Made by a program: the position numbers and the translations under genes. A stretch of DNA of 45,242 nt, from the NCBI GenBank assembly GCA_032718475.1, contig JAUCBJ010001676.1:1-45242 (forward strand). The letters are read 5' to 3'. The notes below the pieces were generated by a model, which worked only from the letters and a program-made list of their open reading frames with translations, was not told where the DNA came from and searched no databases. Below, one piece after another: positions 1,452 to 44,885 of this stretch. The number at the start of each line of letters is the position of its first letter. The first letter of the stretch is position 1. This DNA comes from Nemertoderma westbladi. Lineage: Eukaryota; Animalia; Xenacoelomorpha.

Positions 1452-1696
1452 TTGTTTACCCTCGTTGCTAGGTACTCCCTTTTATTTGTTTATCTCCGTT
1501 GCTAGGTGCTCTAACTTACTTTGTTTACCCCCGTTGCTAGGAGATCTAGTTTACTTTGTTTACCCCCGTTGCTAGGTGCTCTAATTTACTTTGTTTACCC
1601 CCGTTGCTAGGTGCTCTAACTTACTTTGTTTACCCCCGTTGCTAGGTGATCTAGTTTACTTTGTTTACCCCCGTTGCTAGGTGCTCTAATTTACTT
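1452..1696 (+). repeat. 35-bp minisatellite, ~7 copies, spanning the intron/exon acceptor
   Basis: Unit TTGTTTACCCCCGTTGCTAG|GTGCTCTAATTTACT; AGs end at 1471, 1505, 1540, 1575, 1610, 1645 and 1680; only the last gives the open exon. Confidence 0.95.
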
Positions 1697-2607: not shown

Positions 2608-5600
2608 CTGTAATGTTTTTCTCTATCCATGCCCCTAATGTTATTGTCTGCCTCTGTAACGTTTTTCACTATCCATGCCCCTAATGTTATTGTCTGTCTC
2701 TGCAACGTTTTTGTCCATCCCTTTCCCTGTAACGTTTTTCTCTATCCATGCCCCTAATGTTATTGTCTGTCTCTGTAACGTTTTTGTCCATCCCTTTCTC
2801 TGTATAACGTTTTTCTCTATCCATGCCCCTGTAATGTCATTGTCTGTCTCTGTAACGTTTTTCTCTATCCATGCCCCTAATGTTATTGTCTGTCTCTGTA
2901 ACGTTTTTGTCCATCCCTTTCTCTGTATAACGTTTTTCTCTATCCATGCCCCTGTGATGTTATTGTCTGTCTCTGTAACGTTTTTCACTATCCATGCCCC
3001 TAATGTTATTGTCTGTCTCTGCAACGTTTTTGTCCATCCCTTTCTCTGTAACGTTTTTCTCTATCCATGCCCCTGTAATGTTATTGTCTGTCTCTGTAAC
3101 GTTTTTCTCTATCCATGCCCCTGTGATGTTATTGTCTGTCTCTGTAACGTTTTTGTCCATCCCTTTCTCTGTAACGTTTTTCTCTATCCATGCCCCTGTA
3201 ATGTTAATAATGTCTGTCTCTGTAACGTTTTTCTCTATCCATGCCCCTGTGATGTTATTGTCTGTCTCTGTAACGTTTTTCTCTACCCATGCCCCTGTAA
3301 TGTTATTGTTTGTCTCTGTAACGTTTTTCTCTATCCATGCCCCTGTAATGTTATTGTCTGTCTCTGTAACGTTTTTGTCCATCCCTTTCTCTGTATAACG
3401 TTTTTCTCTATCCATGCCCCTGTAATGTTATTGTCTGTCTCTGTAACGTTTTTCTCTATCCATGCCCCTAATGTTATTGTCTGTCTCTGTAACGTTTTTG
3501 TCCATCCCTTTCTCTGTATAACGTTTTTCTCTATCCATGCCCCTGTGATGTTATTGTCTATCTCTGTAACGTTTTTCACTATCCATGCCCCTAATGTTAT
3601 TGTCTGTCTCTGCAACGTTTTTGTCCATCCCTTTCTCTGTAACGTTTTTTCTACCCATGCCCCTGTAATGTTATTGTCTGTCTCTGTAACGTTTTTGTCC
3701 ATCCCTTTCTCTGTAACGTTTTTCTCTATCCATTCCCCTGTAATGTTATTGTCTGTCTCTGTAACGTTTTTCTCTATCCATGCCCCTGTAATGTTTTTGT
3801 TTGTCTCTGTAACGTTTTTTCTACCCATGCCCCTGTAATGTTATTGTCTGTCTCTGTAACGTTTTTGTCAATCCCTTTCCCTGTAACATTTTTCTCTATC
3901 CATGCCCCTGTAATGTTATTGTCTGTCTCTGTAACGTTTTTCTCTAGCCATGCCCCTGTAATGTTTTTCTCTATCCATGCCCCTAATGTTATTGTCTGTC
4001 TCTGTAACGTTTTTGTCCATCCCTTTCCCTGTAACGTTTTTCTCTATCCATGCCCCTAATGTTATTGTCTGTCTCTGCAACGTTTTTGTCCATCCCTTTC
4101 TCTGTAACGTTTTTCTCTATCTATGCCACTGTAATGTTATTGTCTGTCTCTGTAACGTTTTTGTCCATCCCTTTCTCTGTAACGTTTTTCTCTATCCATG
4201 CCCCTGTAATGTTATTGTCTGTCTCTGTAACGTTTTTCTCTAGCCATGCCCCTGTAATGTTATTGTTTGTCTCTGTAACGTTTTTTCTACCCATGCCCCT
4301 GTAATGTTATTGTCTGTCTCTGTAACGTTTTTGTCCATCCCTTTCTCTGTAACGTTTTTCTCTATCCATGCCCCTGTAATGTTATTGTCTGTCTCTGTAA
4401 CGTTTTGTCCATCCCTTTCTCTGTAACGTTTTTCTCTATCTATGCCACTGTAATGTTATTGCCTGTCTCTGTAACGTTTTTGTCCATCCCTTTCTCTGTA
4501 ACGTTTTTCTCTATCCATGCCCCTGTAATGTTATTGTCTGTCTCTGTAACGTTTTTGTCCATCCCTTTCTCTGTAACGTTTTTCTCTATCCATGCCCCTG
4601 TAATGTTATTGTCTGTCTCTGCAACGTTTTTCTCTATCCATGCCCCTGTAATGTTATTGTCTGTCTCTGTAACGTTTTTGTCCATCCCTTTCTCTGTAAC
4701 GTTTTTCTCTATCCATGCCCCTGTAATGTTATTGTCTGTCTCTGTAACGTTTTTCTCTAGCCATGCCCCTGTAATGTTATTGTTTGTCTCTGTAACGTTT
4801 TTTCTATCCATGCCCCTGTAATGTTATTGTCTGTCTCTGTAACGTTTTTGTCCATCCCTTTCTCTGTAACGTTTTTCTCTATCCATGCCCCTGTAATGTT
4901 ATTGTCTGTCTCTGTAACGTTTTGTCCATCCCTTTCTCTCTAACGTTTTTCTCTATCCATGCCCCTGTAATGTTATTGTCTGTCTCTGTAACGTTTTTGT
5001 CCATCCCTTTCTCTGTAACGTTTTACTCTATCCATGCCCCTGTAATGTTATTGTCTGTCTCTGTAACGTTTTTGTCCATCCCTTTCTCTGTAACGTTTTT
5101 CTCTATCCATGCCCCTGTAATGTTATTGTCTGTCTCTGTAACGTTTTTGTCCATCCCTTTCTCTGTAACGTTTTTCTCTATCCATGCCCCTAATGTTATT
5201 GTCTGTCTCTGTAACGTTTTTGTCCATCCCTTTCTCTGTAACGTTTTTCTCTATCCATGCCCCTGTAATGTTATTGTCTGTCTCTGTAACGTTTTTCTCT
5301 AGCCATGCCCCTGTAATGTTATTGTTTGTCTCTGTAACGTTTTTTCTATCCATGCCCCTGTAATGTTATTGTCTGTCTCTGTAACGTTTTTGTCCATCCC
5401 TTTCCCTGTAACGTTTTTCTCTATCCATGCCCCTGTAATGTTATTGTCTGTCTCTGTAACGTTTTTGTCCATCCCTTTCTCTGTAACGTTTTTCTCTATC
5501 CATGCCCCTGTAATGTTATTGTCTGTCTCTGTAACGTTTTTGTCCATCCCTTTCTCTGTAACGTTTTTCTCTATCCATGCCCCTGTAATGTTATTGTCTG

Positions 5601-7948
5601 TCTCTGTAACGTTTTTGTCCATCCCTTTCTCTGTAACGTTTTTCTCTATCCTGGCCCCTGTAATGTTATTGTCTGTCTCTGTAACGTTTTTCTCTATCCA
5701 TGCCCCTGTAATGTTATTGTCTGTCTCTGTAACGTTTTTGTCCATCCCTTTCTCTGTAACGTTTTTCTCTATCCATGCCCCTGTAATGTTATTGTCTGTC
5801 TCTGTAACGTTTTTGTCCATCCCTTTCTCTGTAACGTTTTTCTCTATCCATGCCCCTGTAATGTTATTGTCTGTCTCTGTAACGTTTTTCTCTAGCCATG
5901 CCCCTGTAATGTTATTGTTTGTCTCTGTAACGTTTTTTCTATCCATGCCCCTGTAATGTTATTGTCTGTCTCTGTAACGTTTTTGTCCATCCCTTTCTCT
6001 GTAACGTTTTTCTCTATCCATGCCCCTGTAATGTTATTGTCTGTCTCTGTAACGTTTTGTCCATCCCTTTCTCTGTAACGTTTTTCTCTATCTATGCCAC
6101 TGTAATGTTATTGCCTGTCTCTGTAACGTTTTTGTCCATCCCTTTCTCTGTAACGTTTTTCTCTATCCATGCCCCTGTAATGTTATTGTCTGTCTCTGTA
6201 ACGTTTTTGTCCATCCCTTTCTCTGTAACGTTTTTCTCTATCCATGCCCCTGTAATGTTATTGTCTGTCTCTGTAACGTTTTTGTCCATCCCTTTCTCTG
6301 TAACGTTTTTCTCTATCCATGCCCCTGTAATGTTATTGTCTGTCTCTGTAACGTTTTTGTCCATCCCTTTCTCTGTAACGTTTTTCTCTATCCTGGCCCC
6401 TGTAATGTTATTGTCTGTCTCTGTAACGTTTTTCTCTATCCATGCCCCTGTAATGTTATTGTCTGTCTCTGTAACGTTTTTGTCCATCCCTTTCTCTGTA
6501 ACGTTTTTCTCTATCCATGCCCCTGTAATGTTATTGTCTGTCTCTGTAACGTTTTTGTCCATCCCTTTCTCTGTAACGTTTTTCTCTATCCATGCCCCTG
6601 TAATGTTATTGTCTGTCTCTGTAACGTTTTTCTCTAGCCATGCCCCTGTAATGTTATTGTCTGTCTCTGTAACGTTTTTGTCCATCCCTTTCTCTGTAAC
6701 GTTTTTCTCTATCCATGCCCCTGTAATGTTCTTGTCTGTCTCTGTAACGTTTTTCTCTAGCCATGCCCCTGTAATGTTATTGTCTGTCTCTGTAACGTTT
6801 TTGTCCATCCCTTTCTCTGTAACGTTTTTCTCTATCCATGCCCCTGTAATGTTATTGTCTGTCTCTGTAACGTTTTTCTCTATCCATGCCCCTGTAATGT
6901 TATTGTCTGTCTCTGTAACGTTTTTCTCTATCCATGCCCCTGTAATGTTATTGTCTGCCTCTGTAACGTTTTTATCTATCCATGCCCCTGTAATGTTATT
7001 GTCTGTCTCTGTAACGTTTTTGTCCATCCCTTTCTCTGTAACGTTTTTCTCTATCCATGCCCCTGTAATGTTATTGTCTGTCTCTGTAACGTTTTTGTCC
7101 ATCCCTTTCTCCCGAACGTTTTTCTCTATCCATGCCCCTGTAATGTTATTGTCTGTCTCTGTATAACGTTTTTGTCCATCCCTTTCTCTGTAACGTTTTT
7201 CTCTATCCATGCCCCTGTAATGTTATTGTCTGTCTCTGTAACGTTTTGTCCATCCCTTTCTCTGTAACGTTTTTCTCTATCTATGCCACTGTAATGTTAT
7301 TGCCTGTCTCTGTAACGTTTTTGTCCATCCCTTTCTCTGTAACGTTTATCTCTATCCATGCCCCTGTAATGTTATTGTCTGTCTCTGTAACGTTTTTCTC
7401 TATCCATGCCCATGTAATGTTATTGTCTGTCTCTGTAACGTTTTTCTCTATCCATGCCCCTGTAATGTTATTGTCTGTCTCTGTAACGTTTTTGTCCATC
7501 CCTTTCTCTGTAACGTTTTTCTCTATCCATGCCCCTGTAATGTTATTGTCTGTCTCTGTAACGTTTTTGTCCATCCCTTTCTCCCGAACGTTTTTCTCTA
7601 TCCATGCCCCTGTAATGTTATTGTCTGTCTCTGTATAACGTTTTTGTCCATCCCTTTCTCTGTAACGTTTTTCTCTATCCATGCCCCTGTAATGTTATTG
7701 TCTGTCTCTGTAACGTTTTGTCCATCCCTTTCTCTGTAACGTTTTTCTCTATCTATGCCACTGTAATGTTATTGCCTGTCTCTGTAACGTTTTTGTCCAT
7801 CCCTTTCTCTGTAACGTTTATCTCTATCCATGCCCCTGTAATGTTATTGTCTGTCTCTGTAACGTTTTTCTCTATCCATGCCCCTGTAATGTTATTGTCT
7901 GTCTCTGTAACGTTTTTCTCTATACATGCCCCTGTAATGTTATTGTCT
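2608..7948. repeat. Composite intronic minisatellite of three related subunits (27+27+21 = 75 bp)
   Basis: Subunits CTGTAACGTTTTTGTCCATCCCTTTCT, CTGTAACGTTTTTCTCTATCCATGCCC and CTGTAATGTTATTGTCTGTCT in variable order. Confidence 0.97.
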
Positions 7949-8221: not shown

Positions 8222-8429
8222 GGAGCAGAAAGCCAATCCAGATATAAATTGGCGTCTTCCGGAAGACTTCGCCGTAGTTTACGCTGATATTGAGGGAGAA
8301 TTAGTTATAGGGGGAGTTTATTTAAGATTGTACATCTCGCAACCGGCGTGGGTCCTACGGAAACCTAAAGAATTCCTTGTGGAAATATTAGATAAACTCA
8401 TTCAACTTAGCAGTTACCAAAACCCACAG
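8222..8429 (+). CDS. DNAJC13: DNAJC13 exon (EQKANPDINWRLPEDFAVVY...GGVYLRLYISQPAWVLRKPKEFL...NPQ), phase 2-0
   Basis: Conserved W.LPEDF and GGV.LR...QPAWVLRKP.EFL motifs; ttcccAG acceptor, CAG|GTAAGT donor at 8430. Confidence 0.95.
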
Positions 8430-11400
8430 GTAAGTGGGACCTGGAAATATTAGATAAACTCATTCAACTTAGCAGTTACCAAAACCCACAAGTAAGTGGG
8501 ACCTGGAAATATTAGATAAACTCATTCAACTTAGCAGCTACCAAAGCCCACAGGGAAGTGGGACCTGGAAATATTAGATAAACTCATTCAACTTAGCAGT
8601 TACCAAAACCCACAAGTAAGTGGGACCTGGAAATATTAGATAAACTCATTCAACTTAGCAGCTACCAAAGCCCACAGGTAAGTGGGACCTGGAAATATTA
8701 GATAAACTCATTCAACTTAGCAGTTACCAAAACCCATAGGTAAGTGGGACCTGGAAATATTAGATAAACTCATTCAACTTAGCAGTTACCAAAACCCACA
8801 GGGAAGTGGGACCTGGAAATATTAGATAAACTCATTCAACTTAGCAGCTACCAAAGCCCACAGGGAAGTGGGACCTGGAAATATTAGATAAACTCATTCA
8901 ACTTAGCAGTTACCAAAACCCATAGGTAAGTGGGACCTGGAAATATTAGATAAACTCATTCAACTTAGCAGCTACCAAAGCCCACAGGGAAGTGGGACCT
9001 GGAAATATTAGATAAACTCATTCAACTTAGCAGTTACCAAAACCCACAGGTAAGTGGGACCTGGAAATATTAGATAAATTCATTCAACTTAGCAGTTACC
9101 AAAACCCATAGGTAAGTGGTACCTGGAAATATTAGATAAACTCATTCAACTTAGCAGCTACCAAAGCCCACAGGGAAGTGGGACCTGGAAATATTAGATA
9201 AACTCATTCAACTTAGCAGTTACCAAAACCCACAGGTAAGTGGGACCTGGAAATATTAGATAAACTCATTCAACTTAGCAGCTACCAAAGCCCACAGGGA
9301 AGTGGGACCTAGAAATATTAGATAAACTCATTCAACTTAGCAGTAACCAAAACCCACAGGTAAGTGGGACCTGGAAATATTAGATAAATTCATTCAACTT
9401 AGCAGTTACCAAAACCCATAGGTAAGTGGTACCTGGAAATATTAGATAAACTCATTCAACTTAGCAGCTACCAAAGCCCACAGGGAAGTGGGACCTGGAA
9501 ATATTAGATAAACTCATTCAACTTAGCAGTTACCAAAACTCACAGGTAAGTGGGACCTGGAAATATTAGATAAACTCATTCAACTTAGCAGTTACCAAAG
9601 CCCACAGGGAAGTGGGACCTGGAAATATTAGATAAACTCATTCAACTTAGCAGTTACCAAAACCCACAGGTAAGTGGGACCTGGAAATATTAGATAAACT
9701 CATTCAACTTAGCAGTTACCAAAACCCACAGGTTAGTGCGACCTGGAAATATTAGATAAACTCATTCAACTTAGCAGCTACCAAAACCCACAGGGAAGTG
9801 GGACCTGGAAATATTAGATAAACTCATTCAACTTAGCAGTTACCAAAGCCCACAGGGAAGTGGGACCTGGAAATATTAGATAAACTCATTCAACTTAGCA
9901 GTTACCAAAACCCACAGGTAAGTGGGACCTGGAAATATTAGATAAACTCATTCAACTTAGCAGTTACCAAAACCCACAGGTTAGTGCGACCTGGAAATAT
10001 TAGATAAACTCATTCAACTTAGCAGCTACCAAAACCCACAGGGAAGTGGTACCTGGAAATATTAGATAAACTCATTCAACTTAGCAGCTACCAAAGCCCA
10101 CAGGGAAGTGGGACCTGGAAATATTAGATAAACTCATTCAACGCAGTTACCAAAACCCACAGGTAAGTGGGACCTGGAAATATTAGATAAACTCATTCAA
10201 CTTAGCAGTTACCAAAACCCACAGGGAAGTGGGACCTGGAAATATTAGATAAACTCATTCAACTTAGCAGCTACCAAAACCCACAGGGAAGTGGGACCTG
10301 GAAATATTAGATAAACTCATTCAACTTAGCAGTTACCAAAACCCACAGGTAAGTGGGACCTGGAAATATTAGATAAACTCATTCAACTTAGCATTTACCA
10401 AAACCCACAGGTAAGTGGGACCTGGAAATATTAGATAAACTCATTCAACTTAGCATTTACCAAAACCCACAGGTAAGTGGGACCTGGAAATATTAGATAA
10501 ACTCATTCAACTTAGCAGCTACCAAAGCCCACAGGGAAGTGGGACCTGGAAATATTAGATAAACTCATTCAACTTAGCAGTTACCAAAACCCACAGGGAA
10601 GTGGGACCTGGAAATATTAGATAAACTCATTCAACTTAGCAGTTACCAAAACCCACAGGGAAGTGGGACCTGGAAATATTAGATAAACTCATTCAACTTA
10701 GCAGCTATCAAAACCCATAGGTAAGTGGGACCTGGAAATATTAGATAAACTCATTCAACTTAGCAGTTACCAAAACCCACAGGGAAGTGGGACCTGGAAA
10801 TATTAGATAAACTCATTCAACTTAGCAGTTACCAAAACCCACAGGGAAGTGGGACCTGGAAATATTAGATAAACTCATTCAACTTAGCAGCTACCAAAAC
10901 CCATAGGTAAGTGGGACCTGGAAATATTAGATAAACTCATTCAACTTAGCAGCTACCAAAACCCATAGGTAAGTGGTACCTGGAAATATTAGATAAACTC
11001 ATTCAACTTAGCAGTTACCAAAACCCACAGGGAAGTGGGACCTGGAAATATTAGATAAACTCATTCAACTTAGCAGTTACCAAAACCCACAGGGAAGTGG
11101 GACCTGGAAATATTAGATAAACTCATTCAACTTAGCAGCTACCAAAACCCACAGGGAAGTGGTACCTGGAAATATTAGATAAACTCATTCAACTTAGCAG
11201 TTACCAAAACCCACAGGTAAGTGGGACCTGGAAATATTAGATAAACTCATTCAACTTAGCAGCTACCAAAACCCACAGGTAAATGGGACCTGGAAATATT
11301 AGATAAACTCATTCAACTTAGCAGTTACCAAAACCCACAGGGAAGTGGGACCTGGAAATATTAGATAAACTCATTCAACTTAGCAGTTACCAAAACCCAC

Positions 11401-14400
11401 AGGGAAGTGGGACCTGGAAATATTAGATAAACTCATTCAACTTAGCAGTTACCAAAACCCACAGGGAAGTGGGACCTGGAAATATTAGATAAACTCATTC
11501 AACTTAGCAGCTACCAAAACCCACAGGTAAGTGGGACCTGGAAATATTAGATAAACTCATTCAACTTAGCAGCTACCAAAACCCACAGGGAAGTGGGACC
11601 TGGAAATATTAGATAAACTCATTCAACTTAGCAGTTACCAAAACCCACAGGGAAGTGGGACCTGGAAATATTAGATAAACTCATTCAACTTAGCAGCTAC
11701 CAAAACCCACAGGGAAGTGGTACCGGGAAATATTAGATAAACTCATTCAACTTAGCAGTTACCAAAACCCACAGGTAAGTGGGACCTGGAAATATTAGAT
11801 AAACTCATTCAACTTAGCAGCTACCAAAACCCACAGGTAAGTGGGACCTGGAAATATTAGATAAACTCATTCAACTTAGCAGTTACCAAAACCCACAGGT
11901 AAGTGGGACCTGGAAATATTAGATAAACTCATTCAACTTAGCAGCTACCAAAACCCACAGGTAAGTGGGACCTGGAAATATTAGATAAACTCATTCAACT
12001 TAGCATTTACCAAAACCCACAGGTAAGTGGGACCTGGAAATATTAGATAAACTCATTCAACTTAGCAGCTACCAAAGCCCACAGGGAAGTGGGACCTGGA
12101 AATATTAGATAAACTCATTCAACTTAGCAGTTACCAAAACCCACAGGGAAGTGGGACCTGGAAATATTAGATAAACTCATTCAACTTAGCAGTTACCAAA
12201 ACCCACAGGGAAGTGGGACCTGGAAATATTAGATAAACTCATTCAACTTAGCAGCTACCAAAACCCATAGGTAAGTGGGACCTGGAAATATTAGATAAAC
12301 TCATTCAACTTAGCAGTTACCAAAACCCACAGGGAAGTGGGACCTGGAAATATTAGATAAACTCATTCAACTTAGCAGTTACCAAAACCCACAGGGAAGT
12401 GGGACCTGGAAATATTAGATAAACTCATTCAACTTAGCAGCTACCAAAACCCATAGGTAAGTGGGACCTGGAAATATTAGATAAACTCATTCAACTTAGC
12501 AGCTACCAAAACCCATAGGTAAGTGGGACCTAGAAATATTAGATAAACTCATTCAACTTAGCAGTTACCAAAACCCACAGGTAAGTGGGACCTGGAAATA
12601 TTAGATAAATTCATTCAACTTAGCAGTTACCAAAACCCATAGGTAAGTGGTACCTGGAAATATTAGATAAACTCATTCAACTTAGCAGCTACCAAAGCCC
12701 ACAGGGAAGTGGGACCTGGAAATATTAGATAAACTCATTCAACTTAGCAGTTACCAAAGCCCACAGGGAAGTGGGACCTGGAAATATTAGATAAACTCAT
12801 TCAACTTAGCAGCTACCAAAACCCATAGGTAAGTGGGACCTAGAAATATTAGATAAACTCATTCAACTTAGCAGTTACCAAAACCCACAGGTAAGTGGGA
12901 CCTGGAAATATTAGATAAACTCATTCAACTTAGCAGCTACCAAAACCCATAGGTAAGTGGGACCTAGAAATATTAGATAAACTCATTCAACTTAGCAGTT
13001 ACCAAAGCCCACAGGGAAGTGGGACCTGGAAATATTAGATAAACTCATTCAACTTAGCAGCTACCAAAACCCATAGGTAAGTGGGACCTAGAAATATTAG
13101 ATAAACTCATTCAACTTAGCAGTTACCAAAATCCACAGATAAGTGGGACCTGGAAATATTAGATAAATTCATTCAACTTAGCAGTTACCAAAACCCATAG
13201 GTAAGTGGTACCTGGAAATATTAGATAAACTCATTCAACTTAGCAGCTACCAAAGCCCACAGGGAAGTGGGACCTGGAAATATTAGATAAACTCATTCAA
13301 CTTAGCAGTTACCAAAGCCCACAGGGAAGTGGGACCTGGAAATATTAGATAAACTCATTCAAATGGGACCTGGAAATATTAGATAAACTCATTCAACTTA
13401 GCAGCTACCAAAACCCATAGGTAAGTGGGACCTAGAAATATTAGATAAACTCATTCAACTTAGCAGTTACCAAAACCCACAGGTAAGTGGGACCTGGAAA
13501 TATTAGATAAATTCATTCAACTTAGCAGTTACCAAAACCCATAGGTAAGTGGTACCTGGAAATATTAGATAAACTCATTCAACTTAGCAGCTACCAAAGC
13601 CCACAGGGAAGTGGGACCTGGAAATATTAGATAAACTCATTCAACTTAGCAGCTACCAAAACCCATAGGTAAGTGGGACCTGGAAATATTAGATAAACTC
13701 ATTCAACTTAGCAGCTACCAAAGCCCACAGGGAAGTGGGACCTGGAAATATTAGATAAACTCATTCAACTTAGCAGTTACCAAAGCCCACAGGGAAGTGG
13801 GACCTGGAAATATTAGATAAACTCATTCAAATGGGACCTGGAAATATTAGATAAACTCATTCAACTTAGCAGCTACCAAAACCCATAGGTAAGTGGGACC
13901 TGGAAATATTAGATAAACTCATTCAACTTAGCAGCTACCAAAACCCATAGGTAAGTGGGACCTGGAAATATTAGATAAACTCATTCAACTTAGCAGTTAC
14001 CAAAACCCACAGGGAAGTGGGACCTGGAAATATTAGATAAATTCATTCAACTTAGCAGCTACCAAAACCCATAGGTAAGTGGGACCTAGAAATATTAGAT
14101 AAACTCATTCAACTTAGCAGTTACCAAAACCCACAGGTAAGTGGGACCTGGAAATATTAGATAAATTCATTCAACTTAGCAGTTACCAAAACCCATAGGT
14201 AAGTGGTACCTGGAAATATTAGATAAACTCATTCAACTTAGCAGTTACCAAAACCCACAGGGAAGTGGGACCTGGAAATATTAGATAAATTCATTCAACT
14301 TAGCAGCTACCAAAACCCATAGGTAAGTGGGACCTAGAAATATTAGATAAACTCATTCAACTTAGCAGTTACCAAAACCCACAGGTAAGTGGGACCTGGA

Positions 14401-17400
14401 AATATTAGATAAATTCATTCAACTTAGCAGTTACCAAAACCCATAGGTAAGTGGTACCTGGAAATATTAGATAAACTCATTCAACTTAGCAGCTACCAAA
14501 GCCCACAGGGAAGTGGGACCTGGAAATATTAGATAAACTCATTCAACTTAGCAGCTACCAAAACCCATAGGTAAGTGGGACCTGGAAATATTAGATAAAC
14601 TCATTCAACTTAGCAGCTACCAAAGCCCACAGGGAAGTGGGACCTGGAAATATTAGATAAACTCATTCAACTTAGCAGTTACCAAAGCCCACAGGGAAGT
14701 GGGACCTGGAAATATTAGATAAACTCATTCAAATGGGACCTGGAAATATTAGATAAACTCATTCAACTTAGCAGCTACCAAAACCCATAGGTAAGTGGGA
14801 CCTGGAAATATTAGATAAACTCATTCAACTTAGCAGCTACCAAAACCCATAGGTAAGTGGGACCTGGAAATATTAGATAAACTCATTCAACTTAGCAGTT
14901 ACCAAAACCCACAGGGAAGTGGGACCTGGAAATATTAGATAAACTCATTCAACTTAGCAGCTACCAAAACCCATAGGTAAGTGGGACCTGGAAATATTAG
15001 ATAAACTCATTCAACTTAGCAGCTACCAAAACCCATAGGTAAGTGGGACCTGGAAATATTAGATAAACTCATTCAACTTAGCAGTTACCAAAACCCACAG
15101 GTAAGTGGGACCTGGAAATATTAGATAAATTCATTCAACTTAGCAGTTACCAAAACCCATAGGTTAGTGGTACCTGTAAATATTAGATAAACTCATTCAA
15201 CTTAGCAGCTACCAAAGCCCACAGGGAAGTGGGACCTGGAAATATTAGATAAACTCATTCAACTTAGCAGTTACCAAAGCCCACAGGGAAGTGGGACCTG
15301 GAAATATTAGATAAACTCATTCAACTTAGCAGCTACCAAAGCCCACAGGGAAGTGGGACCTGGAAATATTAGATAAACTCATTCAACTTAGCAGTTACCA
15401 AAGCCCACAGGGAAGTGGGACCTGGAAATATTAGATAAACTCATTCAACTTAGCAGTTACCAAAACCCACAGGTAAGTGGGACCTGGAAATATTAGATAA
15501 ACTCATTCAACGCAGTTACCAAAACCCACAGGTAAGTGGGACCTGGAAATATTAGATAAACTCATTCAACTTAGCAGTTACCAAAACTCACAGGGAAGTG
15601 GGACCTGGAAATATTAGATAAACTCATTCAACTTGCAGCTACCAAAACCCACAGGGAAGTGGGACCTGGAAATATTAGATAAACTCATTCAACTTAGCAG
15701 TTACCAAAACCCACAGGTAAGTGGGACCTGGAAATATTAGATAAACTCATTCAACTTAGCATTTACCAAAACCCACAGGTAAGTGGGACCTGGAAATATT
15801 AGATAAACTCATTCAACTTAGCATTTACCAAAACCCACAGGTAAGTGGGACCTGGAAATATTAGATAAACTCATTCAACTTAGCAGCTACCAAAGCCCAC
15901 AGGGAAGTGGGACCTGGAAATATTAGATAAACTCATTCAACTTAGCAGTTACCAAAACCCACAGGTAAGTGGGACCTGGAAATATTAGATAAACTCATTC
16001 AACTTAGCAGCTACCAAAGCCCACAGGGAAGTGGGACCTGGAAATATTAGATAAACTCATTCAACTTAGCAGTTACCAAAACCCACAGGGAAGTGGGACC
16101 TGAGATAAACTCATTCAACTTAGCAGTTACCAAAACCCACAGGGAAGTGGGACCTGGAAATATTAGATAAACTCATTCAACTTAGCAGCTACCAAAACCC
16201 ACAGGGAAGTGGGACCTGAAAATATTAGATAAACTCATTCAACTTAGCAGCTACCAAAACCCATAGGTAAGTGGGACCTGGAAATATTAGATAAACTCAT
16301 TCAACTTAGCAGTTACCAAAACCCACAGGGAAGTGGGACCTGGAAATATTAGATAAACTCATTCAACTTAGCAGTTACCAAAACCCACAGGGAAGTGGGA
16401 CCTGGAAATATTAGATAAACTCATTCAACTTAGCAGCTACCAAAACCCATAGGTAAGTGGGACCTGGAAATATTAGATAAACTCATTCAACTTAGCAGCT
16501 ACCAAAGCCCACAGGGAAGTGGGACCTGGAAATATTAGATAAACTCATTCAACGCAGTTACCAAAACCCACAGGTAAGTGGGACCTGGAAATATTAGATA
16601 AACTCATTCAACTTAGCAGTTACCAAAACCCACAGGGAAGTGGGACCTGGAAATATTAGATAAACTCATTCAACTTAGCAGTTACCAAAACCCACAGGGA
16701 AGTGGGACCTGGAAATATTAGATAAACTCATTCAACTTAGCAGCTACCAAAACCCATAGGTAAGTGGGACCTGGAAATATTAGATAAACTCATTCAACTT
16801 AGCAGCTACCAAAACCCATAGGTAAGTGGTACCTGGAAATATTAGATAAACTCATTCAACTTAGCAGTTACCAAAACCCACAGGGAAGTGGGACCTGGAA
16901 ATATTAGATAAACTCATTCAACTTAGCAGTTACCAAAACCCACAGGGAAGTGGGACCTGGAAATAGTAGATAAATTCATTCAACTTAGCAGCTACCAAAA
17001 CCCATAGGTAAGTGGTACCTGGAAATATTAGATAAACTCATTCAACTTAGCAGTTACCAAAACCCACAGGGAAGTGGGACCTGGAAATATTAGATAAACT
17101 CATTCAACTTAGCAGCTACCAAAACCCACAGGTAAGTGGGACCTGGAAATATTAGATAAACTCATTCAACTTAGCAGTTACCAAAACCCACAGGGAAGTG
17201 GGACCTGGAAATATTAGATAAACTCATTCAACTTAGCAGTTACCAAAACCCACAGGGAAGTGGGACCTGGAAATATTAGATAAACTCATTCAACTTAGCA
17301 GCTACCAAAACCCATAGGTAAGTGGGACCTGGAAATATTAGATAAACTCATTCAACTTAGCAGCTACCAAAACCCACAGGGAAGTGGGACCTGGAAATAT

Positions 17401-17840
17401 TAGATAAACTCATTCAACTTAGCAGTTACCAAAACCCACAGGGAAGTGGGACCTGGAAATATTAGATAAACTCATTCAACTTAGCAGCTACCAAAACCCA
17501 TAGGTAAGTGGGACCTGGAAATATTAGATAAACTCATTCAACTTAGCAGTTACCAAAACCCACAGGGAAGTGGGACCTGGAAATATTAGATAAACTCATT
17601 CAACTTAGCAGTTACCAAAACCCACAGGGAAGTGGGACCTGGAAATATTAGATAAACTCATTCAACTTAGCAGCTACCAAAACCCATAGGTAAGTGGTAC
17701 CTGGAAATATTAGATAAACTCATTCAACTTAGCAGTTACCAAAACCCACAGGGAAGTGGGACCTGGAAATATTAGATAAACTCATTCAACTTAGCAGTTA
17801 CCAAAGCCCACAGGGAAGTGGGACCTAGAAATATTAGATA
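8380..17840 (+). repeat. 62-bp minisatellite, ~150 copies, made of the last ~50 nt of the exon plus the 5' splice site
   Basis: Unit TGGAAATATTAGATAAACTCATTCAACTTAGCAGTTACCAAAACCCACAG|GTAAGTGGGACC; the first copy is the real exon end. Confidence 0.98.
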
Positions 17841-18029: not shown

Positions 18030-18209
18030 GGGGAGGTTTTGGAGGCGGTTACCACAGCAACAGTGATGCTGCTCTCCAGCCACTCCCATCTGGGCGACAA
18101 CATACCGGCGTTGGGGCACCTCACACACCTTGTAAAGGCATTGGGATGTCGTAACGAGGCTGTTGTCAAGGCAATGACTAGAGTTATACATCAGATTTCA
18201 ACCAATGGG
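18030..18209 (+). CDS. DNAJC13: DNAJC13 exon (GEVLEAVTTA...IPALGHL...ISTNG), phase 0-0
   Basis: tacTAG acceptor, GTGAGT at 18210; 180 nt; D.IP.LGHL motif. Confidence 0.92.
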
Positions 18210-19460: not shown

Positions 19461-20098
19461 AAGCCCGTGAAGCCAATTTTAAAAATCGCTTATACACATT
19501 TAATCTCAATAATTTCACACGTGGCTTAAATCAATTGAAAGCGGAGAGTCTTACACGTCTTTTGACACCACAATTAATTAAATTCAAGATGGGAAAGATT
19601 GTTGAAATTCTGTTCACAATTGCAAACTCTGCGGATTACCTGATCTGTATGCTAGCACTCAGCCCTTGCACTTGCAGCTTACACCATTTAAGTTGGGTTT
19701 ACCGGTGACTAGTGCACATTTTTAATATTCAAGTAGCCTTACCAATTATTATAGTACCGGCTGACCGGTATTAAAAGCTTTTTTAAATCTAACCTGTAGT
19801 CCTTTCCGTAATCAATACAGATTGGAATGTAGTACTGCTGCTGGAAACAGCATTTTATCAATGTTCATCATCATGAATTTATTTAATTGCCGTGTCAAAA
19901 GACGTGCAAGACTCCCCGCTTTCAATTGATTTAAGCCACGTGTGAAATGATTGAGATTATAAGTGTAGACCTACTTAAATGTATCTAAAATCACCCTCCA
20001 TAGAAACCAATATAAGAACTTATCTGAGCACTGCGTAGTGACGTCAAATATGTAGCAGCCAATCACAGCCGATTTTCAAAATTGGCCTCCCGGGCCTA
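19461..20098. mobile_element. Non-autonomous foldback/MITE-like DNA element
   Basis: Outer imperfect inverted repeats (AGCCCGTGAAGCCAATTTTAAAAATCG versus CGATTTTCAAAATTGGCCTCCCGGGCC) and inner ~100-bp inverted repeats (~19490-19590 versus ~19870-19968); possible TA TSD. Confidence 0.7.
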
Positions 20099-20425: not shown

Positions 20426-20525
20426 GTCAATGAACTTCTGCAGAAAAGTAGTGTTTGGGCGGAATACAGAGACCAGAAACACGATTTGTTTATAAAAGAT
20501 ACCCCAGTAGCTGGTTACTTAACTG
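20426..20525 (+). CDS. DNAJC13: DNAJC13 exon ([34 protein letters not shown]), phase 0-1
   Basis: Conserved [10 protein letters not shown] and AGYLTG motifs; tttAG acceptor, GTGAGT at 20526. Not in the ORF track. Confidence 0.95.
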
Positions 20526-23500
20526 GTGAGTTGATTTAACTATAACCCCAGTAGCGGGTTACTTAACTGGTGAGTTGATTTAACTATTTAACCCCAGTAG
20601 CGGGTTACTTAACTGGTGAGTTGATTTATCTATAACCACAGTAGCGGGTTACTTAACTGGTGAGTTGATTTAACTATAACCCCAGTAGCTGGTTACTTAA
20701 CTGGTGAGTTGATTTAACTATAACCCAGTAGCGGGTTACTTAACTGGTGAGTTGATTTAACTATAACACAGTAGCGGGTTACTTAACTGGTGAGTTGATT
20801 TAACTATAACCCCAGTAGCGGGTTACTTAACTGGTGAGTTGATTTAACTATAACCCCAGTAGCGGGTTACTTAACTGGTGAGTTGATTTAACTATAACCC
20901 CAGTAGCGGGTTACTTAACTGGTGAGTTGATTTAACTATAACCCCAGTAGCGGGTTACTTAACTGGTGAGTTGATTTAACTATAACCCCAGTAGCGGGTT
21001 ACTTAACTGGTGAGTTGATTTAACTATAACCCCAGTAGCGGGTTACTTAACTGGTGAGTTGATTTAACTATAACCCAGTAGCGGGTTACTTAACTGGTGA
21101 GTTGATTTAACTATAACCCCAGTAGCGGGTTACTTAACTGGTGAGTTGATTTAACTATAACTCCAGTAGCGGGTTACTTAACTGGTGAGTTGATTTAACT
21201 ATAACCCAGTAGCGGGTTACTTAACTGGTGAGTTGATTTAACTATAACCCCAGTAGCGGGTTACTTAACTGGTGAGTTGATTTAACTATAACCCCAGTAG
21301 CGGGTTACTTAACTGGTGAGTTGATTTAACTATAACCCAGTAGCGGGTTACTTAACTGGTGAGTTGATTTAACTATAACCCCAGTAGCGGGTTACTTAAC
21401 TGCTGAGTTGATTTAACTATAACACAGTAGCGGGTTACTTAACTGCTGAGTTGATTTAACTATAACCCCAGTAGCGGGTTACTTAACTGGTGAGTTGATT
21501 TAACTATAACCCCAGTAGCGGGTTACTTAACTGGTGAGTTGATTTAACTATAACCCCAGTAGCGGGTTACTTAACTGGTGAGTTGATTTAACTATAACCC
21601 CAGTAGCGGGTTACTTAACTGGTGAGTTGATTTAACTATAACCCAGTAGCGGGTTACTTAACTGGTGAGTTGATTTAACTATAACCCCAGTAGCGGGTTA
21701 CTTAACTGGTGAGTTGATTTAACTATAACCCAGTAGCGGGTTACTTAACTGGTGAGTTGATTTAACTATAACCCCAGTAGCGGGTTACTTAACTGGTGAG
21801 TTGATTTAACTATAACCCCAGTAGCGGGTTACTTAACTGGTGAGTTGATTTAACTATAACCCCAGTAGCGGGTTACTTAACTGGTGAGTTGATTTAACTA
21901 TAACCCCAGTAGCGGGTTACTTAACTGGTGAGTTGATTTAACTATAACCCCAGTAGCGGGTTACTTAACTGGTGAGTTGATTTAACTATAACCCCAGTAG
22001 CGGGTTACTTAACTGGTGAGTTGATTTAACTATAACCCAGTAGCGGGTTACTTAACTGGTGAGTTGATTTAACTATAACCCCAGTAGCGGGTTACTTAAC
22101 TGGTGAGTTGATTTAACTATAACCCCAGTAGCGGGTTACTTAACTGGTGAGTTGATTTAACTATAACCCCAGTAGCGGGTTACTTAACTGGTGAGTTGAT
22201 TTAACTATAACCCCAGTAGCGGGTTACTTAACTGGTGAGTTGATTTAACTATAACCCCAGTAGCGGGTTACTTAACTGGTGAGTTGATTTAACTATAACC
22301 CAGTAGCGGGTTACTTAACTGGTGAGTTGATTTAACTATAACCCCAGTAGCGGGTTACTTAACTGGTGAGTTGATTTAACTATAACCCCAGTAGCGGGTT
22401 ACTTAACTGGTGAGTTGATTTAACTATAACCCCAGTAGCGGGTTACTTAACTGGTGAGTTGATTTAACTATAACCCCAGTAGCGGGTTACTTAACTGGTG
22501 AGTTGATTTAACTATAACCCCAGTAGCGGGTTACTTAACTGGTGAGTTGATTTAACTATAACCCAGTAGCGGGTTACTTAACTGGTGAGTTGATTTAACT
22601 ATAACCCAGTAGCGGGTTACTTAACTGGTGAGTTGATTTAACTATAACCCCAGTAGCGGGTTACTTAACTGGTGAGTTGATTTAACTATAACCCCAGTAG
22701 CGGGTTACTTAACTGGTGAGTTGATTTAACTATAACCCCAGTAGCGGGTTACTTAACTGGTGAGTTGATTTAACTATAACCCCAGTAGCGGGTTACTTAA
22801 CTGGTGAGTTGATTTAACTATAACCCAGTAGCGGGTTACTTAACTGGTGAGTTGATTTAACTATAACCCAGTAGCGGGTTACTTAACTGGTGAGTTGATT
22901 TAACTATAACCCCAGTAGCGGGTTACTTAACTGGTGAGTTGATTTAACTATAACCCCAGTAGCGGGTTACTTAACTGGTGAGTTGATTTAACTATAACCC
23001 CAGTAGCGGGTTACTTAACTGGTGAGTTGATTTAACTATAACCCAGTAGCGGGTTACTTAACTGGTGAGTTGATTTAACTATAACCCAGTAGCGGGTTAC
23101 TTAACTGGTGAGTTGATTTAACTATAACCCCAGTAGCGGGTTACTTAACTGGTGAGTTGATTTAACTATAACCCCAGTAGCGGGTTACTTAACTGGTGAG
23201 TTGATTTAACTATTTAACCCCAGTAGCGGGTTACTTAACTGGTGAGTTGATTTAACTATAACCCCAGTAGCGGGTTACTTAACTGGTGAGTTGATTTAAC
23301 TATAACCCCAGTAGCGGGTTACTTAACTGGTGAGTTGATTTAACTATAACCCCAGTAGCGGGTAACTTAAATGGTGAGTTGATTTAACTATAACCCCAGT
23401 AGCGGGTTACTTAACTGGTGAGTTGATTTAACTATAACCCAGTAGCGGGTTACTTAACTGGTGAGTTGATTTAACTATAACCCAGTAGCGGGTTACTTAA

Positions 23501-23740
23501 CTGGTGAGTTGATTTAACTATAACCCCAGTAGCGGGTTACTTAACTGGTGAGTTGATTTAACTATAACCCCAGTAGTGGGTTACTTAACTGGTGAGTTGA
23601 TTTAACTATAACCCAGTAGCGGGTTACTTAACTGGTGAGTTGATTTAACTATAACACAGTAGCGGGTTTCTTAACTGGTGAGTTGATTTAACTATAACCC
23701 CAGTAGCGGGTTACTTAACTGGTGAGTTGATTTAACTATA
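20501..23740 (+). repeat. 43-44-bp minisatellite, ~74 copies, made of the last 25 nt of the exon plus the 5' splice site
   Basis: Unit ACCCCAGTAGCGGGTTACTTAACTG|GTGAGTTGATTTAACTATA; the first copy is the real exon end. Confidence 0.98.
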
Positions 23741-27144: not shown

Positions 27145-27470
27145 CCTTTTTATGATATAGTTAAAAGCATTTTCCGAGACAAAGTCCAGGATTTGCCGAC
27201 CAGGTCGAACAATGATATCTGGAGTTCTTCCTAATCTTATTAGCCCAGCAAATCCGACATTGCTTTTGCGGATTTATATACAAATACAATAAGTAGCCCT
27301 TTGTATCACATAGAAAGAATATAATGATACCGAAACGGGCGCGTTATATTCGAATAAATTGTTTGAAATGAAGCACCCCTTGATCAATAGGAGAGACTCA
27401 TCGAGAGAGAGTTCTTGCTCGGGAATGTAGATTCCACAGATTTTATGGAGTTCTTCAATGAAGTCAGTCA
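27145..27470 (-). pseudogene. piggyBac transposase relic, internally deleted (first catalytic-Asp region fused to the C-terminal Cys-rich domain)
   Basis: Minus strand reads YIPEQELSLDESLLLIKG, frameshift, LHFKQFIRI*RARFGIIIFFLCDTKGY, then directly PQKQCRICWANKIRKNSRYHCSTWSANPGLCLGKCF*LYHK. Confidence 0.85.
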
Positions 27471-27775
27471 GTCTCGACATTGTCGTCGAGTACTACCCGA
27501 CGGCCCGACTCGAGCTATTCGGCTCGTCCGTAAACGGCTTCGGATTCTGGCACTCGGACCTCGACATATGCATGACGATGTCGGACATTCCGGACGCCTC
27601 GGAGGTCCACCAAGAAGCCGTTATCGCCAACTGCCAACCTCGGGAAACAAATGCGGAATCTCCGGGAGGAGTTTGCTAACGTCTCCCCGATAACCTCCGC
27701 TAAGGTTCCCATCGTTATGTTCCTCCATCTCCCCTCCGACTCGAGGGCGATATCAGTCTCTAGTCTCTACAACAT
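27470..27775 (+). pseudogene. Fragment of a terminal uridylyltransferase (TUT4/TUT7-like) nucleotidyltransferase domain, frameshifted
   Basis: YPTARLELFGSSVNGFGFWHSDLDICMT (GS...DxD motif), then in another frame NVSPITSAKVPIVMFLHL...SLYN; more GC-rich than its flanks. Confidence 0.8.
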
Positions 27776-27798: not shown

Positions 27799-28467
27799 TA
27801 GGTCATAGAGCACTTCCACGCACTTTCATATGACCTAACAGTTAGGTCATAGAGCACTTCCACGCACTTTCACATGACCTAACAGTTAGGTCATAGAGCA
27901 CTTCCACGCACTTTCATATAACCTAACAGTTAGGTCATAGAGCACTTCCACACACTTTCATAAGACCTAACAGTTAGGTCATAGAGCACTTCCACGCACT
28001 TTCATATGACCTAACAGTTAGGTCATAGAGCACTTCCACGCACTTTCATATTACCTAACAGTTAGGTCATAGAGCACTTCCACGCACTTTCATATTACCT
28101 AACAGTTAGGTCATAGAGCACTTCCACGCACTTTCATATGACCTAACAGTTAGGTCATAGAGCACTTCCACGCACTTTCATATGACCTAACAGTTACGTC
28201 ATAGAGCACTTCCACGCACTTTCATATGACCTAACAGTTAGGTCATAGAGCACTTCCACGCACTTTCATATGACCTAACAGTTAGGTCATAGAGCACTTC
28301 CACGCACTTTCATATGACCTAACAGTTAGGTCATAGAGCACTTCCACGCACTTTCATATGACCTAACAGTTAGGTCATAGAGCACTTCCACGCACTTTCA
28401 TATGACCTAACAGTTAGGTCATAGAGCACTTCCACGCACTTTCATATGACCTAACAGTTAGGTCATA
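27799..28467. repeat. 44-bp tandem array, ~15 copies, each containing the palindrome TATGACCTAAC-A-GTTAGGTCATA
   Basis: Unit GGTCATAGAGCACTTCCACGCACTTTCATATGACCTAACAGTTA. Confidence 0.96.
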
Positions 28468-28483
28468 GGCGTCAAGGGGTTAA
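28468..28483 (-). mobile_element. piggyBac terminus with TTAA target site (TTAA|CCCCTTGACGCC on the minus strand)
   Basis: ...GGCGTCAAGGGG|TTAA at 28480-28483, on the 5' side of the minus-strand transposase relic. The matching other end was not identified. Confidence 0.7.
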
Positions 28484-29297: not shown

Positions 29298-30809
29298 ATG
29301 CTCCTTCAGATAGCAATAGGAGTTGGTACGTTTACACTGGTGGTCTACGTGGCGCGAACAATCCAATGGCGATTGAGATACAAGATGCCACCCGCGCCAC
29401 ACAGCTGGCCGTTACTAGGCAATGCATTTTCGGGACCGAAAAATAAAAAAATGTACCAAACACTAATGGAATGGAGTAAGGAATTCGGCCCGGTTATTAC
29501 ATTGTCTGTGGGTCCGTTTGTTAACGTTGTTACGCTAAACGATATCGAGTCAATTAGAGAAGCGTTCGTACGTAAAGGCAACGAATTCGCTGGGCGACCC
29601 AAGTTTTATTCCGCCGAAATAACAAGCGATAACTACAGCGACATCGCCGCCGCAGATTTCTCGCCACAGTGGAAGTTCCTAAGGAAAACCGCCGCGGGCG
29701 CTTTCAAACATTTTGCGTCGCGGAATCAGGTTGAGGAATTGTCAAGAAAATCCTTCAGGTCAATTACAAGTAGCATCGACCAAAAGGTGGTGGATAAAGA
29801 CGTCCAAAGACATGGGTTCGACCCTGAAGAGACTCTTGCATTACTTGTATTCAATACGGTTGCGGGGCTCTGTTTCAACAAGATCTATGATCCGCAAGAC
29901 AAGGTATTTCAACACATTCACCAACTCTTTGTAGACTTGATTAAAGTTGGCGGAAACGGACTTGTTGCCGATTATATACCGATATTTCGTTACTTTCCGA
30001 CGTCCACTGTGAGGATAATTAAAAGAGCCATGGAGGATTTCTTGGGGTTCATAGAGAAAGAGATCACTGAGCACAAAGAGGAGTTCGATGCTGATCATAT
30101 GAATGATCTCACAGACTACCTCATCTACGAACAGAAACAGTCTCTAGACCACCAAGGGCAACACGATTTCTCAGATTTGGTTCTCAAACATATCCTTTCG
30201 GATACATTTGGCGCCGGTATAGATACAACAAATCGATTGCTTTACTGGGGGCTAGCTTTAATGGCTACCAATCCAGATGTACAGGAACGTTGTGCTACTG
30301 AGTTAAATGAAGAAGTTGGACCCGAGGGGTTACCGGAACTTGGGCAGATGCCTCGATTACCGTACACGGTTGCCACAGTCCACGAGCTTCTACGCTACGC
30401 CACAGTGGCGCCGCTATCCGTTCCACATTCCACCACGCAGGACGTGGAACTACTGGGATATAAACTCCCAAAGGGCACCATGGTGCTCCCCAATCTGTAC
30501 GCGGTCCACTACGACGCCACGAGATGGACTAACCCGGAAGAGTTTAACCCGAATCGGTTTATCCTCAACGGAGAATTCGTTATGAGTTACTCCGAAGGTT
30601 TTCTGCCATTTTCTGCAGGTAGACGAGTCTGTCTAGGTGAAGCTGTTGCTAAACCCGAACTGTTTATCCTTTTCAGCTGTCTGGTACACACGTACGAGTT
30701 TTCTCCTGCTCCAGATAGCCCCCCACCCAATGTGTCTCCCTCGGAGGAAACTTCCGCATTCGAGTTTATGCCGCATCAATACAAAGTTGCGGTCCGGAGA
30801 CGATACTAA
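29298..30809 (+). CDS. Cytochrome P450, clan 2 (CYP17/CYP1/CYP2-like), intronless, 503 aa
   Basis: First ATG at 29298 (ccaacATG); N-terminal membrane anchor, PPAP..WPLLGN hinge, WxxxR, I-helix FGAGIDTT, ELLR, FNPNRF and heme motif FSAGRRVCLG; TAA at 30807-30809. Confidence 0.95.
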   Translation: MLLQIAIGVGTFTLVVYVARTIQWRLRYKMPPAPHSWPLLGNAFSGPKNKKMYQTLMEWSKEFGPVITLSVGPFVNVVTLNDIESIREAFVRKGNEFAGRPKFYSAEITSDNYSDIAAADFSPQWKFLRKTAAGAFKHFASRNQVEELSRKSFRSITSSIDQKVVDKDVQRHGFDPEETLALLVFNTVAGLCFNKIYDPQDKVFQHIHQLFVDLIKVGGNGLVADYIPIFRYFPTSTVRIIKRAMEDFLGFIEKEITEHKEEFDADHMNDLTDYLIYEQKQSLDHQGQHDFSDLVLKHILSDTFGAGIDTTNRLLYWGLALMATNPDVQERCATELNEEVGPEGLPELGQMPRLPYTVATVHELLRYATVAPLSVPHSTTQDVELLGYKLPKGTMVLPNLYAVHYDATRWTNPEEFNPNRFILNGEFVMSYSEGFLPFSAGRRVCLGEAVAKPELFILFSCLVHTYEFSPAPDSPPPNVSPSEETSAFEFMPHQYKVAVRRRY

Positions 30810-31824
30810 TGTAGATGTTCGTAATTATTTGGTGCCAACAATCAATTTAGTTGTGGAACTATATGCTACATAATTGCACGCCATTCCGATATCTGCTTGC
30901 GCATAGCACCCCACACACACAACGATCATAGGGAATACTCATGCAACAAATATATCAAACTAATCAAACAAACTTAGACTGCTTAAGTATTCATTACATA
31001 GTTAAAACTTTAGTTCTGGATAAAACAACACCCGATAACCAATTAATTCATAAAGAAGTACATTATTAATTTCTTAACTCATAATTTCAATATGAGCAAT
31101 TAATAATATTAATAATTTCTGAAACTTTCGAATGTTGTTACTAAGAAACCATGCGTCCTGGTATATTATCTTGTTATTTGGCCTAATTAATATCAAACCC
31201 TCGAAATAATGTTGTGTCTAGCCATTCCATTTCCATACTATGTCATGTGATGTCATGTTGTCTGTACCATAACGTGCCATGATGTAACATGCCAAGTCCT
31301 ACAAAGTTATTATCATCCTGTGACAGTAATGCCACAACAAATCGCCATGTGCCATGCCATGGATGTCATACCGTGTCAGAGCTGTGCTATCATATTAATT
31401 CATATGCCAATGCCATGGTGTGTCTGTTACGGACACACGTAATATGCCGACGTAAGATGGCGTATATTGTGCCATTTATAGCAATCCAGGCAACCACAAA
31501 GGCTGTGATTTCAGTGATTAAAGTTTAGTACCGTCCGACACCTGTAACGTCCGACACTATTATTATTATGTATTTAATGTTTAAATTGCAGTATATAGTG
31601 TAAAGGCATATTCCAGAACTATATTGTTCGTCTTCTTCTAACATTTATTTTATTCAACAAGAAAGCAATTGGACAACAAGCCAATATAGTGGCTTATGAG
31701 TGCCCGTTTGCCACTGTATTGTTTTTATATGCATGTAGGCCTACTACTAAATACTAGGCCCTAAAACATCAAATATCTTTGTCCATATGATTTTCAATAC
31801 TAAAATAAATAAATATATAAAAAT

Positions 31825-32369
31825 TGTGACGGGATCCAGATGGGATCCCGGTTTATCCGGTTTTGTCAGTTCACGCGTCCCTGCCGTGTGTGAAGAGTAA
31901 AAGAGTTTCGGTTGTTCGACGTGTATAATGTTTGGGTATATGGATATAGATACGGTATAATGGTGGATAAAGTTATTGCATATGGAAGGCGGGAGACGGT
32001 AATTGAAATCCCGGTACTTCCCTAACTAAACTATTGTAAGCTACAGTAACACCAGTAACTAGCACTGAGATAACTGAACTGATATGATTACAGGTTACTG
32101 GTTATATTGCACGGTGGCCTTATTGCTACTCAATCGATGCCTTTCCCCCCTCCTGATTGGTTGGAACCCTTGTTGGCGCCCTTTGGAGTGTTCCCGTTCA
32201 CTCCACCTGTTCTCTCTGGGTTAGGGGTTTGGCCCCTGACCCTCATTGTGTGTTTCCTTCCCATTCTTATTGGGATGGCACGAGTTGGTTAATTACCCAA
32301 TCTCGTGGCTCCCAATATTGTTTATCGGCTTAACTTTATGGGGTGTTAGCGGGATTGAATAAGGTAACA
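31825..32369 (-). repeat. 3' LTR, 545 bp, TG...CA
   Basis: TGTGAC...GTAACA; adjacent CTCCCCCCAT is the PPT (ATGGGGGGAG on minus); nearly identical to 44958-45242. Confidence 0.92.
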
Positions 32370-35180: not shown

Positions 35181-35642
35181 CTACAGCTCTCCTGTAGGTT
35201 TTTCTGTCCTTTCTATCTTTCCACCTATCCGCACTTCCACCGATCGGACTCTTCCGTCCTCGTCGGAGTAGGTGCCTACAACTCTCGCCAACCGCCATTG
35301 GTTGTTGATGATAGTATCATCCGTAACGATTACGAGATCTCCCTCTCTTATCTCCCTATTCGGCTTCCTCCACTTGCTTCTTTTATGGAGTGTGGGTAGG
35401 TATTCCTCGACCCACCTCCTCCAATACTCTGCGCTAATTGCTTTGGCGACTTTCCAACTTTGGCGGGAGTGTATGTCGTCTGGATCTACACCCCGCATGT
35501 CGATGGTCGCTGGCCTTTCCATCAGGAAATGGCTAGGCGTCAGCACGTCTAGTGACTCAGGGTCATCATTCTCCGGGTATAGCGGTCTGCTATTAATGAT
35601 CCCCTCGCACTTCGCAAGCACCGTCCGTAAGACATCTTCTGT
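35181..35642 (-). CDS. Integrase C-terminal part of the BEL/Pao polyprotein, separated by an insertion
   Basis: IINSRPL, LTPSHFL, WRRWVEEYL, WRLARV and DGRVRSVEVR motifs; joins in frame to ...HMVTEDV when the insert is removed. Confidence 0.9.
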   Translation of the reverse strand, partial: TEDVLRTVLAKCEGIINSRPLYPENDDPESLDVLTPSHFLMERPATIDMRGVDPDDIHSRQSWKVAKAISAEYWRRWVEEYLPTLHKRSKWRKPNREIREGDLVIVTDDTIINNQWRLARVVGTYSDEDGRVRSVEVRIGGKIERTEKPTGEL

Positions 35643-44700: not shown

Positions 44701-44885
44701 TCTCGCTCTCTCTTCCTCTCGGCTCGACCTCGGGTTCCAGGCCCCCCCCCATCCTGAACTGCCGGATGACCCGTTACCGATGGGTCCGGCGTTGTGGGCC
44801 TGTATCGCCTGGTTGCAGCCTCGCGGATCTTTAATTCTTCTTCGTCCGGGGTCCGCGTCGGCGTTGTCTCTCCCGACTGACTCAT
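41680..44885 (-). CDS. Probable N-terminal extension of the polyprotein (charged coiled-coil, Asn-rich, repeat-rich), broken by frameshifts at poly-G runs
   Basis: Four overlapping ORFs tile the region from ATG 44885 to the gag core, and every overlap contains a C8-C13 run. Confidence 0.7.

Follow-up and report, generated by a model that had tools for sequence, protein, structure and literature searches.

A 154-unit minisatellite spanning an exon-intron junction of the DNAJC13 gene in Nemertoderma westbladi

The DNAJC13 locus

The window, a 45,242-nt stretch of Nemertoderma westbladi DNA (contig JAUCBJ010001676.1), carries nine DNAJC13 exons between positions 653 and 23960. Joined, these give 523 codons in which the terminal stop is the only stop. 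The product shows 54% identity across 520 columns to P0001, a named DNAJC13 from a snake, which is the reference for the identity figures listed below. Identification as DNAJC13 comes from sequence comparison with homologs; the Pfam and PDB searches gave no support, as the DNAJC13 family was not found by Pfam on 4 of 4 single exons and one exon tried against PDB sequences gave 0 matches. An exon search of 1.84 billion representative proteins yielded none from N. westbladi itself, with a best match of 68% identity. Tandem repeats make up 79% of positions 1-23960, and three of the arrays (154, 74, and 7 copies) are situated at splice junctions, an unusual load for one gene. Arrays at junctions number 3 of 6 (P = 0.07), a figure that does not establish enrichment. 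Features are given here with a slash marking the junction in splice site motifs.

1452..1696, + strand: acceptor array (acceptor and start of exon), 7 copies of a 35-bp unit, CTAG/G; AG kept in 7/7
8222..8429, + strand: DNAJC13 coding exon, 208 nt; 63% identity to P0001 residues 1632-1699
8380..17840, + strand: junction-spanning minisatellite, 154 units of ~62 bp; GT kept in 76 (75 downstream decoys), 78 without GT
8442..8627, + strand: copies 2-4 of the minisatellite, all weakened (CAA/GT, CAG/GG, CAA/GT)
8451..8453, + strand: TAG in frame, reached in every transcript that uses a downstream donor; 221 C-terminal codons lost
17826..17840, + strand: incomplete terminal unit, 14/15 identical to exon positions 8380-8394
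18030..18209, + strand: following DNAJC13 exon of 180 nt, both ends in phase 0; 47% identity to P0001 1700-1758
20501..23740, + strand: second donor array of the gene, last intron; 44-bp unit, 74 copies, CTG/GTGAGT; GT kept in 72/74

The last 50 nt of the exon at 8222..8429 form the exon part of the repeat unit, and the authentic donor, CAG/GTAAGT, is at 8429/8430. The junction between this first donor and position 18030 aligns without a gap to 3 of the 5 homologs checked, the other 2 being gapped there themselves. Splicing from the first donor alone keeps the frame open, and intact protein is accordingly predicted to be made via that donor only. The initial annotation placed a TAG seven codons past the first donor and stated that with any downstream donor translation would stop prematurely. 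Both statements hold; the TAG is found at 8451, with the loss of 221 codons. At least three junctions lie further downstream of this TAG, i.e. the premature stop is well upstream of a junction, as regulated unproductive splicing requires. As the exon at 18030..18209 is phase 0 at both ends, its skipping would keep the frame.

Anatomy of the array

Tandem Repeats Finder gives a 62-bp period for 8380..17840 (+ strand). Parsing of this segment yields 154 units and a terminal partial unit of 15 nt, in agreement with the initial description of a 9.5-kb array with about 150 copies of an exon end plus donor. The ~62-bp unit consists of the final 50 bases of the DNAJC13 exon and 12 intron bases. Units of 62 nt predominate (n = 145), and there are also units of 59 nt (n = 3), 34 nt (n = 3), and 61 nt (n = 1) and one 116-nt piece (62 + 54). 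The first unit, 8380-8441, lies across the real exon-intron boundary, and the donor is repeated from there head to tail into the intron, with GT present in 75 downstream copies.

Donor counts were taken over the 151 of 154 units that have a donor position, a 28-nt deletion having removed the donor in 3 units. The count of unit variants proposed in the initial annotation gives CAG/GGAAGT in 74/151, TAG/GTAAGT in 37/151, CAG/GTAAGT in 33/151 (the authentic donor among them), and CAG/ATAAGT in 1/151. The remaining 6/151 are other GT forms, namely CAA/GTAAGT (n = 2), CAG/GTTAGT (n = 2), TAG/GTTAGT (n = 1), and CAG/GTAAAT (n = 1). The proportion of GT-destroyed copies had been put at very roughly half, which is what these counts show (74/151 with CAG/GG; 78/154 units without GT). 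Strong decoys, i.e. CAG or TAG/GTAAGT, number 69 among the downstream copies, and the exact authentic 9-mer is kept in just 32 of 153 of them.

If the order of copies were random, the weakening of all of copies 2-4 would have P = 0.16. Only copies 2 and 4 have the -1 G>A change; as these two copies are identical, they probably represent one event. The first strong decoy is in copy 5, at 8677, and its use would produce an exon of 456 nt, compared with exon lengths of 91-285 nt in this DNAJC13 gene. Copy 5 (8628-8689) is also the sole unit that combines the -8 variant with an intact GT (1/31), a combination that likely came from conversion or crossover within the unit.

Several other properties of the array were looked at. 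A coding repeat was rejected, as no stretch of the array free of stops exceeds 40-41 codons on either strand. Premature polyadenylation is unsupported, with AATAAA and ATTAAA absent from the array, and a special folding of the unit was rejected with z-scores of -0.4 to -1.1. A 23-base piece of the unit gave 0 matches to metagenome contigs. Judged from the recurrence of substitutions and the block structure, an assembly artefact appears unlikely as the source of the array.

Origin and turnover

Similarity to the exon ends at the incomplete terminal unit, as the next 6 bases match at 1/6 and the upstream 10 bases at 2/10. The 15-nt terminal unit is likely to be the short direct repeat from which the first duplication started, to judge from the sequence match. 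An incomplete terminal unit together with short flanking direct repeats are marks of two models of minisatellite birth, as reviewed in PMC3389668. The terminal partial unit is thus compatible with birth from short direct repeats but does not constitute proof of such an origin.

The mean pairwise difference among units is 4.0%. One 10-unit block recurs inside the array, and the 34-nt and 59-nt deletion units have three occurrences each. Units found in repeated blocks of at least 5 number 32/154, whereas 300 shuffles gave a mean of 0.55 and a maximum of 12. The later growth of the array was by blocks, and copy counts therefore do not represent independent events.

Other junction arrays in the gene

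The array in the last intron (20501..23740) also consists of repeated donors, with GT retained in its copies 2-4. In 72/74 of its copies a variant outside the donor, at -14, is present; thus high frequencies need no donor effect. Read-through into this array meets a stop after 5 codons, with which the conserved GPGVAGYLT motif would be lost. As a control the array is imperfect, being younger, with a weaker donor, in the last intron and with 33 codons at stake. In the acceptor array at 1452..1696 the frame is open via the last copy (1681) only, and 6/6 upstream copies lead to a stop.

Two further repeats were noted in the introns. At 154-650, ~99 copies of a 5-bp unit abut the acceptor at 653 and supply its entire pyrimidine tract. 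At 2608-7948 there is a 5.3-kb compound repeat with periods of 21-123 that touches no splice junction.

Variant spectrum and selection on the donor GT

The initial annotation suggested that the frequent variant at the invariant +2 position may reflect selection against decoys. A weak purifying selection of this type would act where leaky splicing wastes transcript, favouring alleles in which copies, the nearest above all, have a weakened donor. The +2 change is the commonest of 21 substitutions, and the third-ranked variant is at -3. Given the spectrum, the chance of the top variant falling on GT is 0.032, or 0.064 for either of the top two, values that pertain to a feature picked after the fact. 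Variable positions comprise 6/9 of the donor and 14/53 elsewhere (P = 0.025; 0.026 when stratified by base type). A further point is the weakening of each of copies 2-4; the -1 G>A change, limited to copies 2 and 4, lowers the predicted U1 pairing from -13.2 to -6.7 kcal/mol, as determined with the known end of U1.

However, the suggestion is only weakly supported. While the +2 variant ranks first, it is rivalled by a variant 16 bases upstream (-16), found in 63/151 copies, and with 45 vs 34 discordant units (sign test P = 0.26, the copies being non-independent) it is not clearly commoner than this variant of the same unit. The array was chosen for the very coincidence under evaluation, and with 15 arrays the probability of encountering one at P = 0.032 is 0.39; the odds favouring selection are discounted for that reason. 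Dead copies show no gradient along the array (Mann-Whitney P = 0.25), with 13/30 dead in the first fifth and 20/31 in the last fifth, and no spacing pattern (82 runs vs a shuffled mean of 76.6, P = 0.21), and the 69 strong decoys remain. Furthermore, GT in the second donor array and AG in the acceptor array are essentially intact.

Variable sites also favour G/C (13/24 vs 7/38, P = 0.005), and they are concentrated within a hairpin of 5 bp predicted around the donor, with stem arms CCCAC and GTGGG (10/16 positions, P = 0.004, the hairpin window being likewise chosen post hoc). The prediction of this hairpin holds for live as well as dead copies. Its non-donor stem positions vary at 4/7 and the donor positions at 6/9, and this equal variability of positions outside the donor also speaks against decoy selection. 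Taken together, selection against decoys appears rather unlikely.

Three neutral growth simulations placed the top variant on GT with a frequency of 0.006-0.009, a result on the side of selection that counts only runs with 15-27 variants (572, 1146, and 712 of 1500 each). In these simulations it is uncommon (4-7%) for a second variant to reach at least 40%, and thus they fit the array poorly. With a simple neutral spectrum, 1.5 variants are expected at 40-60% and 2 are observed. No published test of selection on dead copies was found in literature searches that were aimed mainly at other points and covered few subscription journals.

Comparison with known junction arrays

The DNAJC13 array is a further case of the known junction-spanning minisatellites, of the F7 type or the amphioxus "mirage" type. 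In the human F7 intron 7 37-bp VNTR, the most upstream of 5-9 identical donor sites alone is used (PMC1557585). The same source describes CBS and 6-16 arrays that leak to the next one or two donors, and LMNB2 and PDGF arrays in which the authentic site only is used. As in DNAJC13, the first F7 unit lies across the exon-intron boundary, with further copies of the donor following in the intron. Arrays of this type differ in unit number, 5-26 compared with 154 in DNAJC13. The F7 pseudo-sites are identical and sub-optimal, whereas half of the DNAJC13 copies are GT-dead and the rest are near the perfect consensus; the DNAJC13 array is in an invertebrate-like gene.

The human ABCA7 intron 18 25-bp VNTR is comparable in scale, with alleles up to 10,678 bp (~427 units). 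Its unit also contains the donor, and use of the second donor also results in a premature stop, followed in ABCA7 by decay. There, second-unit donor use was unaffected by array size, whereas larger arrays had more skipping of the next exon (PMC5954066). The ABCA7 unit starts at GT and includes little exon, whereas the DNAJC13 unit carries 50 exon bases. Length polymorphism and splicing have been measured for ABCA7; DNAJC13 is represented by one haplotype.

In amphioxus, boundary duplications termed mirages (Adh3, the globins BflGb6/9, TnC, PGBD5) leave splicing undisturbed (PMC3087553, PMC3902484). These too are tandem copies of donor and acceptor boundaries in an invertebrate, with several per genome, with "many, but not all" copies keeping their signals and with concerted evolution. 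The amphioxus globin clusters have 2-6 units, compared with the three arrays of 154, 74, and 7 in the one DNAJC13 gene.

Donor use and interpretation

The explanation preferred here, with a probability of about 0.7, is that the minisatellite arose by slippage between short direct repeats, that the first donor is used almost exclusively, and that the GT-dead variant spread neutrally. Slippage between two short direct repeats would have copied the end of the exon, along with its donor, into the intron that follows. The donor that comes first after the acceptor of the exon would likely be committed and the remaining donors ignored, with priority given either by 5′-to-3′ scanning or by exon definition, as the mammalian and amphioxus precedents suggest. 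Leak to nearby copies would be at most a few percent and would be removed by nonsense-mediated decay. The GT-destroying variant likely reached half of the copies through the neutral spread of one early mutation.

Use of the first donor is favoured because only that donor gives an open frame, with homologs aligning across its junction. The neutral reading of the dead copies is supported by the second array and the acceptor array, which keep GT in 72/74 and AG in 7/7, and by the lack of gradient or spacing among dead copies with the persistence of so many strong decoys. Counted against it are the rank of the +2 variant, the variability of the donor positions, the small share of downstream copies with the exact authentic 9-mer, and the weakening of copies 2-4. 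Counted against first-donor priority is the F7 minigene, where pseudo-sites of perfect consensus drew 70-90% of the splicing away from a first site that was weaker (PMC1557585). The DNAJC13 decoys are of perfect consensus like those competing pseudo-sites, but the first DNAJC13 site is equally perfect.

The initial annotation also proposed that the live:dead ratio could tune productive splicing, i.e. that it sets the share of transcript sent to decay and thereby the DNAJC13 dose. The premature-stop logic of this proposal stands, as every downstream donor leads to the stop at 8451, beyond which lie at least three junctions. However, neither order nor conservation is apparent. Moreover, the sites that have an effect in F7 and ABCA7 are just the first one or two, and in ABCA7 the one-unit isoform is constant across array sizes and decay inhibition is unrelated to size (PMC5954066). 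Such tuning is very improbable. A combined form, in which GT-dead-rich alleles with copies 2-4 silenced are favoured since perfect-consensus decoys steal splicing and the live:dead mix sets DNAJC13 output via decay, is improbable. If true, selection on array make-up would be a general heritable splicing dial in a genome rich in junction arrays.

A different possibility is that array length, or the load of U1-binding or G-run-binding sequence, alters skipping of the exon at 18030-18209 regardless of GT. Even the dead copies retain predicted pairing with U1, at -9.1 kcal/mol, which falls within the -3.6 to -13.2 of the authentic donors of the gene, and therefore such an effect would be independent of GT. 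Each unit with the +2 change gains a second GGG run, and in ABCA7 the skipping of a downstream in-frame exon rose with length (PMC5954066). The case is one of analogy only, however, and leaves the spread of the +2 variant unexplained; this possibility is highly improbable.

Recursive splice sites have a strong AG-free pyrimidine tract before the site. The motif YAG/GTAAGT occurs in 70 units, and a live CAG/GTAAGT could in principle serve as acceptor and then donor, with the intron removed stepwise. However, the 20 nt before the 5 AGs of one unit contain 3-6 T and 1-2 other AGs, whereas the authentic acceptors (9/9) have 9-13 T and no AG. Because the T-rich tract seen before all 9 real acceptors is missing from the array AGs, recursive splicing has next to no probability.

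The preferred reading, a neutral array with use of the first donor, leaves DNAJC13 as it stands a large example of a known oddity. It also provides a test bed, in which one exon is followed by 69 near-perfect decoy donors and another by 72, and a third is preceded by 6 decoy acceptors. Three arrays in one intact gene allow first-donor priority to be tested outside mammals and beyond the F7 scale. Were donor-killing variants enriched across many arrays, selection would be seen to shape the internal make-up of a minisatellite through splicing.

Other features in the window

An intronless cytochrome P450 open reading frame of 503 aa is found at 29298-30806 (+ strand; Pfam p450 E-value = 1e-101). 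It has no close relative, the best identities being 35-40% to echinoderm, hemichordate, and mollusc proteins. Long open reading frames of 1651, 334, 294, and 483 aa at 35181-44773 (- strand) resemble a BEL/Pao LTR retrotransposon. Open reading frames at 31747-32025 and 44922-45161 have translated text in common and may mark terminal repeats.

At 19470-19990, two arms of ~100 bp near 19480-19570 and 19890-19970 resemble inverted repeats by eye and may belong to a small intronic transposon of the non-autonomous kind. Short open reading frame pieces at 27161-27679 resemble a transposase of the piggyBac type on the - strand and, on the + strand, a terminal nucleotidyltransferase. A 15-copy array of a 44-bp unit, 27799-28468, adjoins these pieces.
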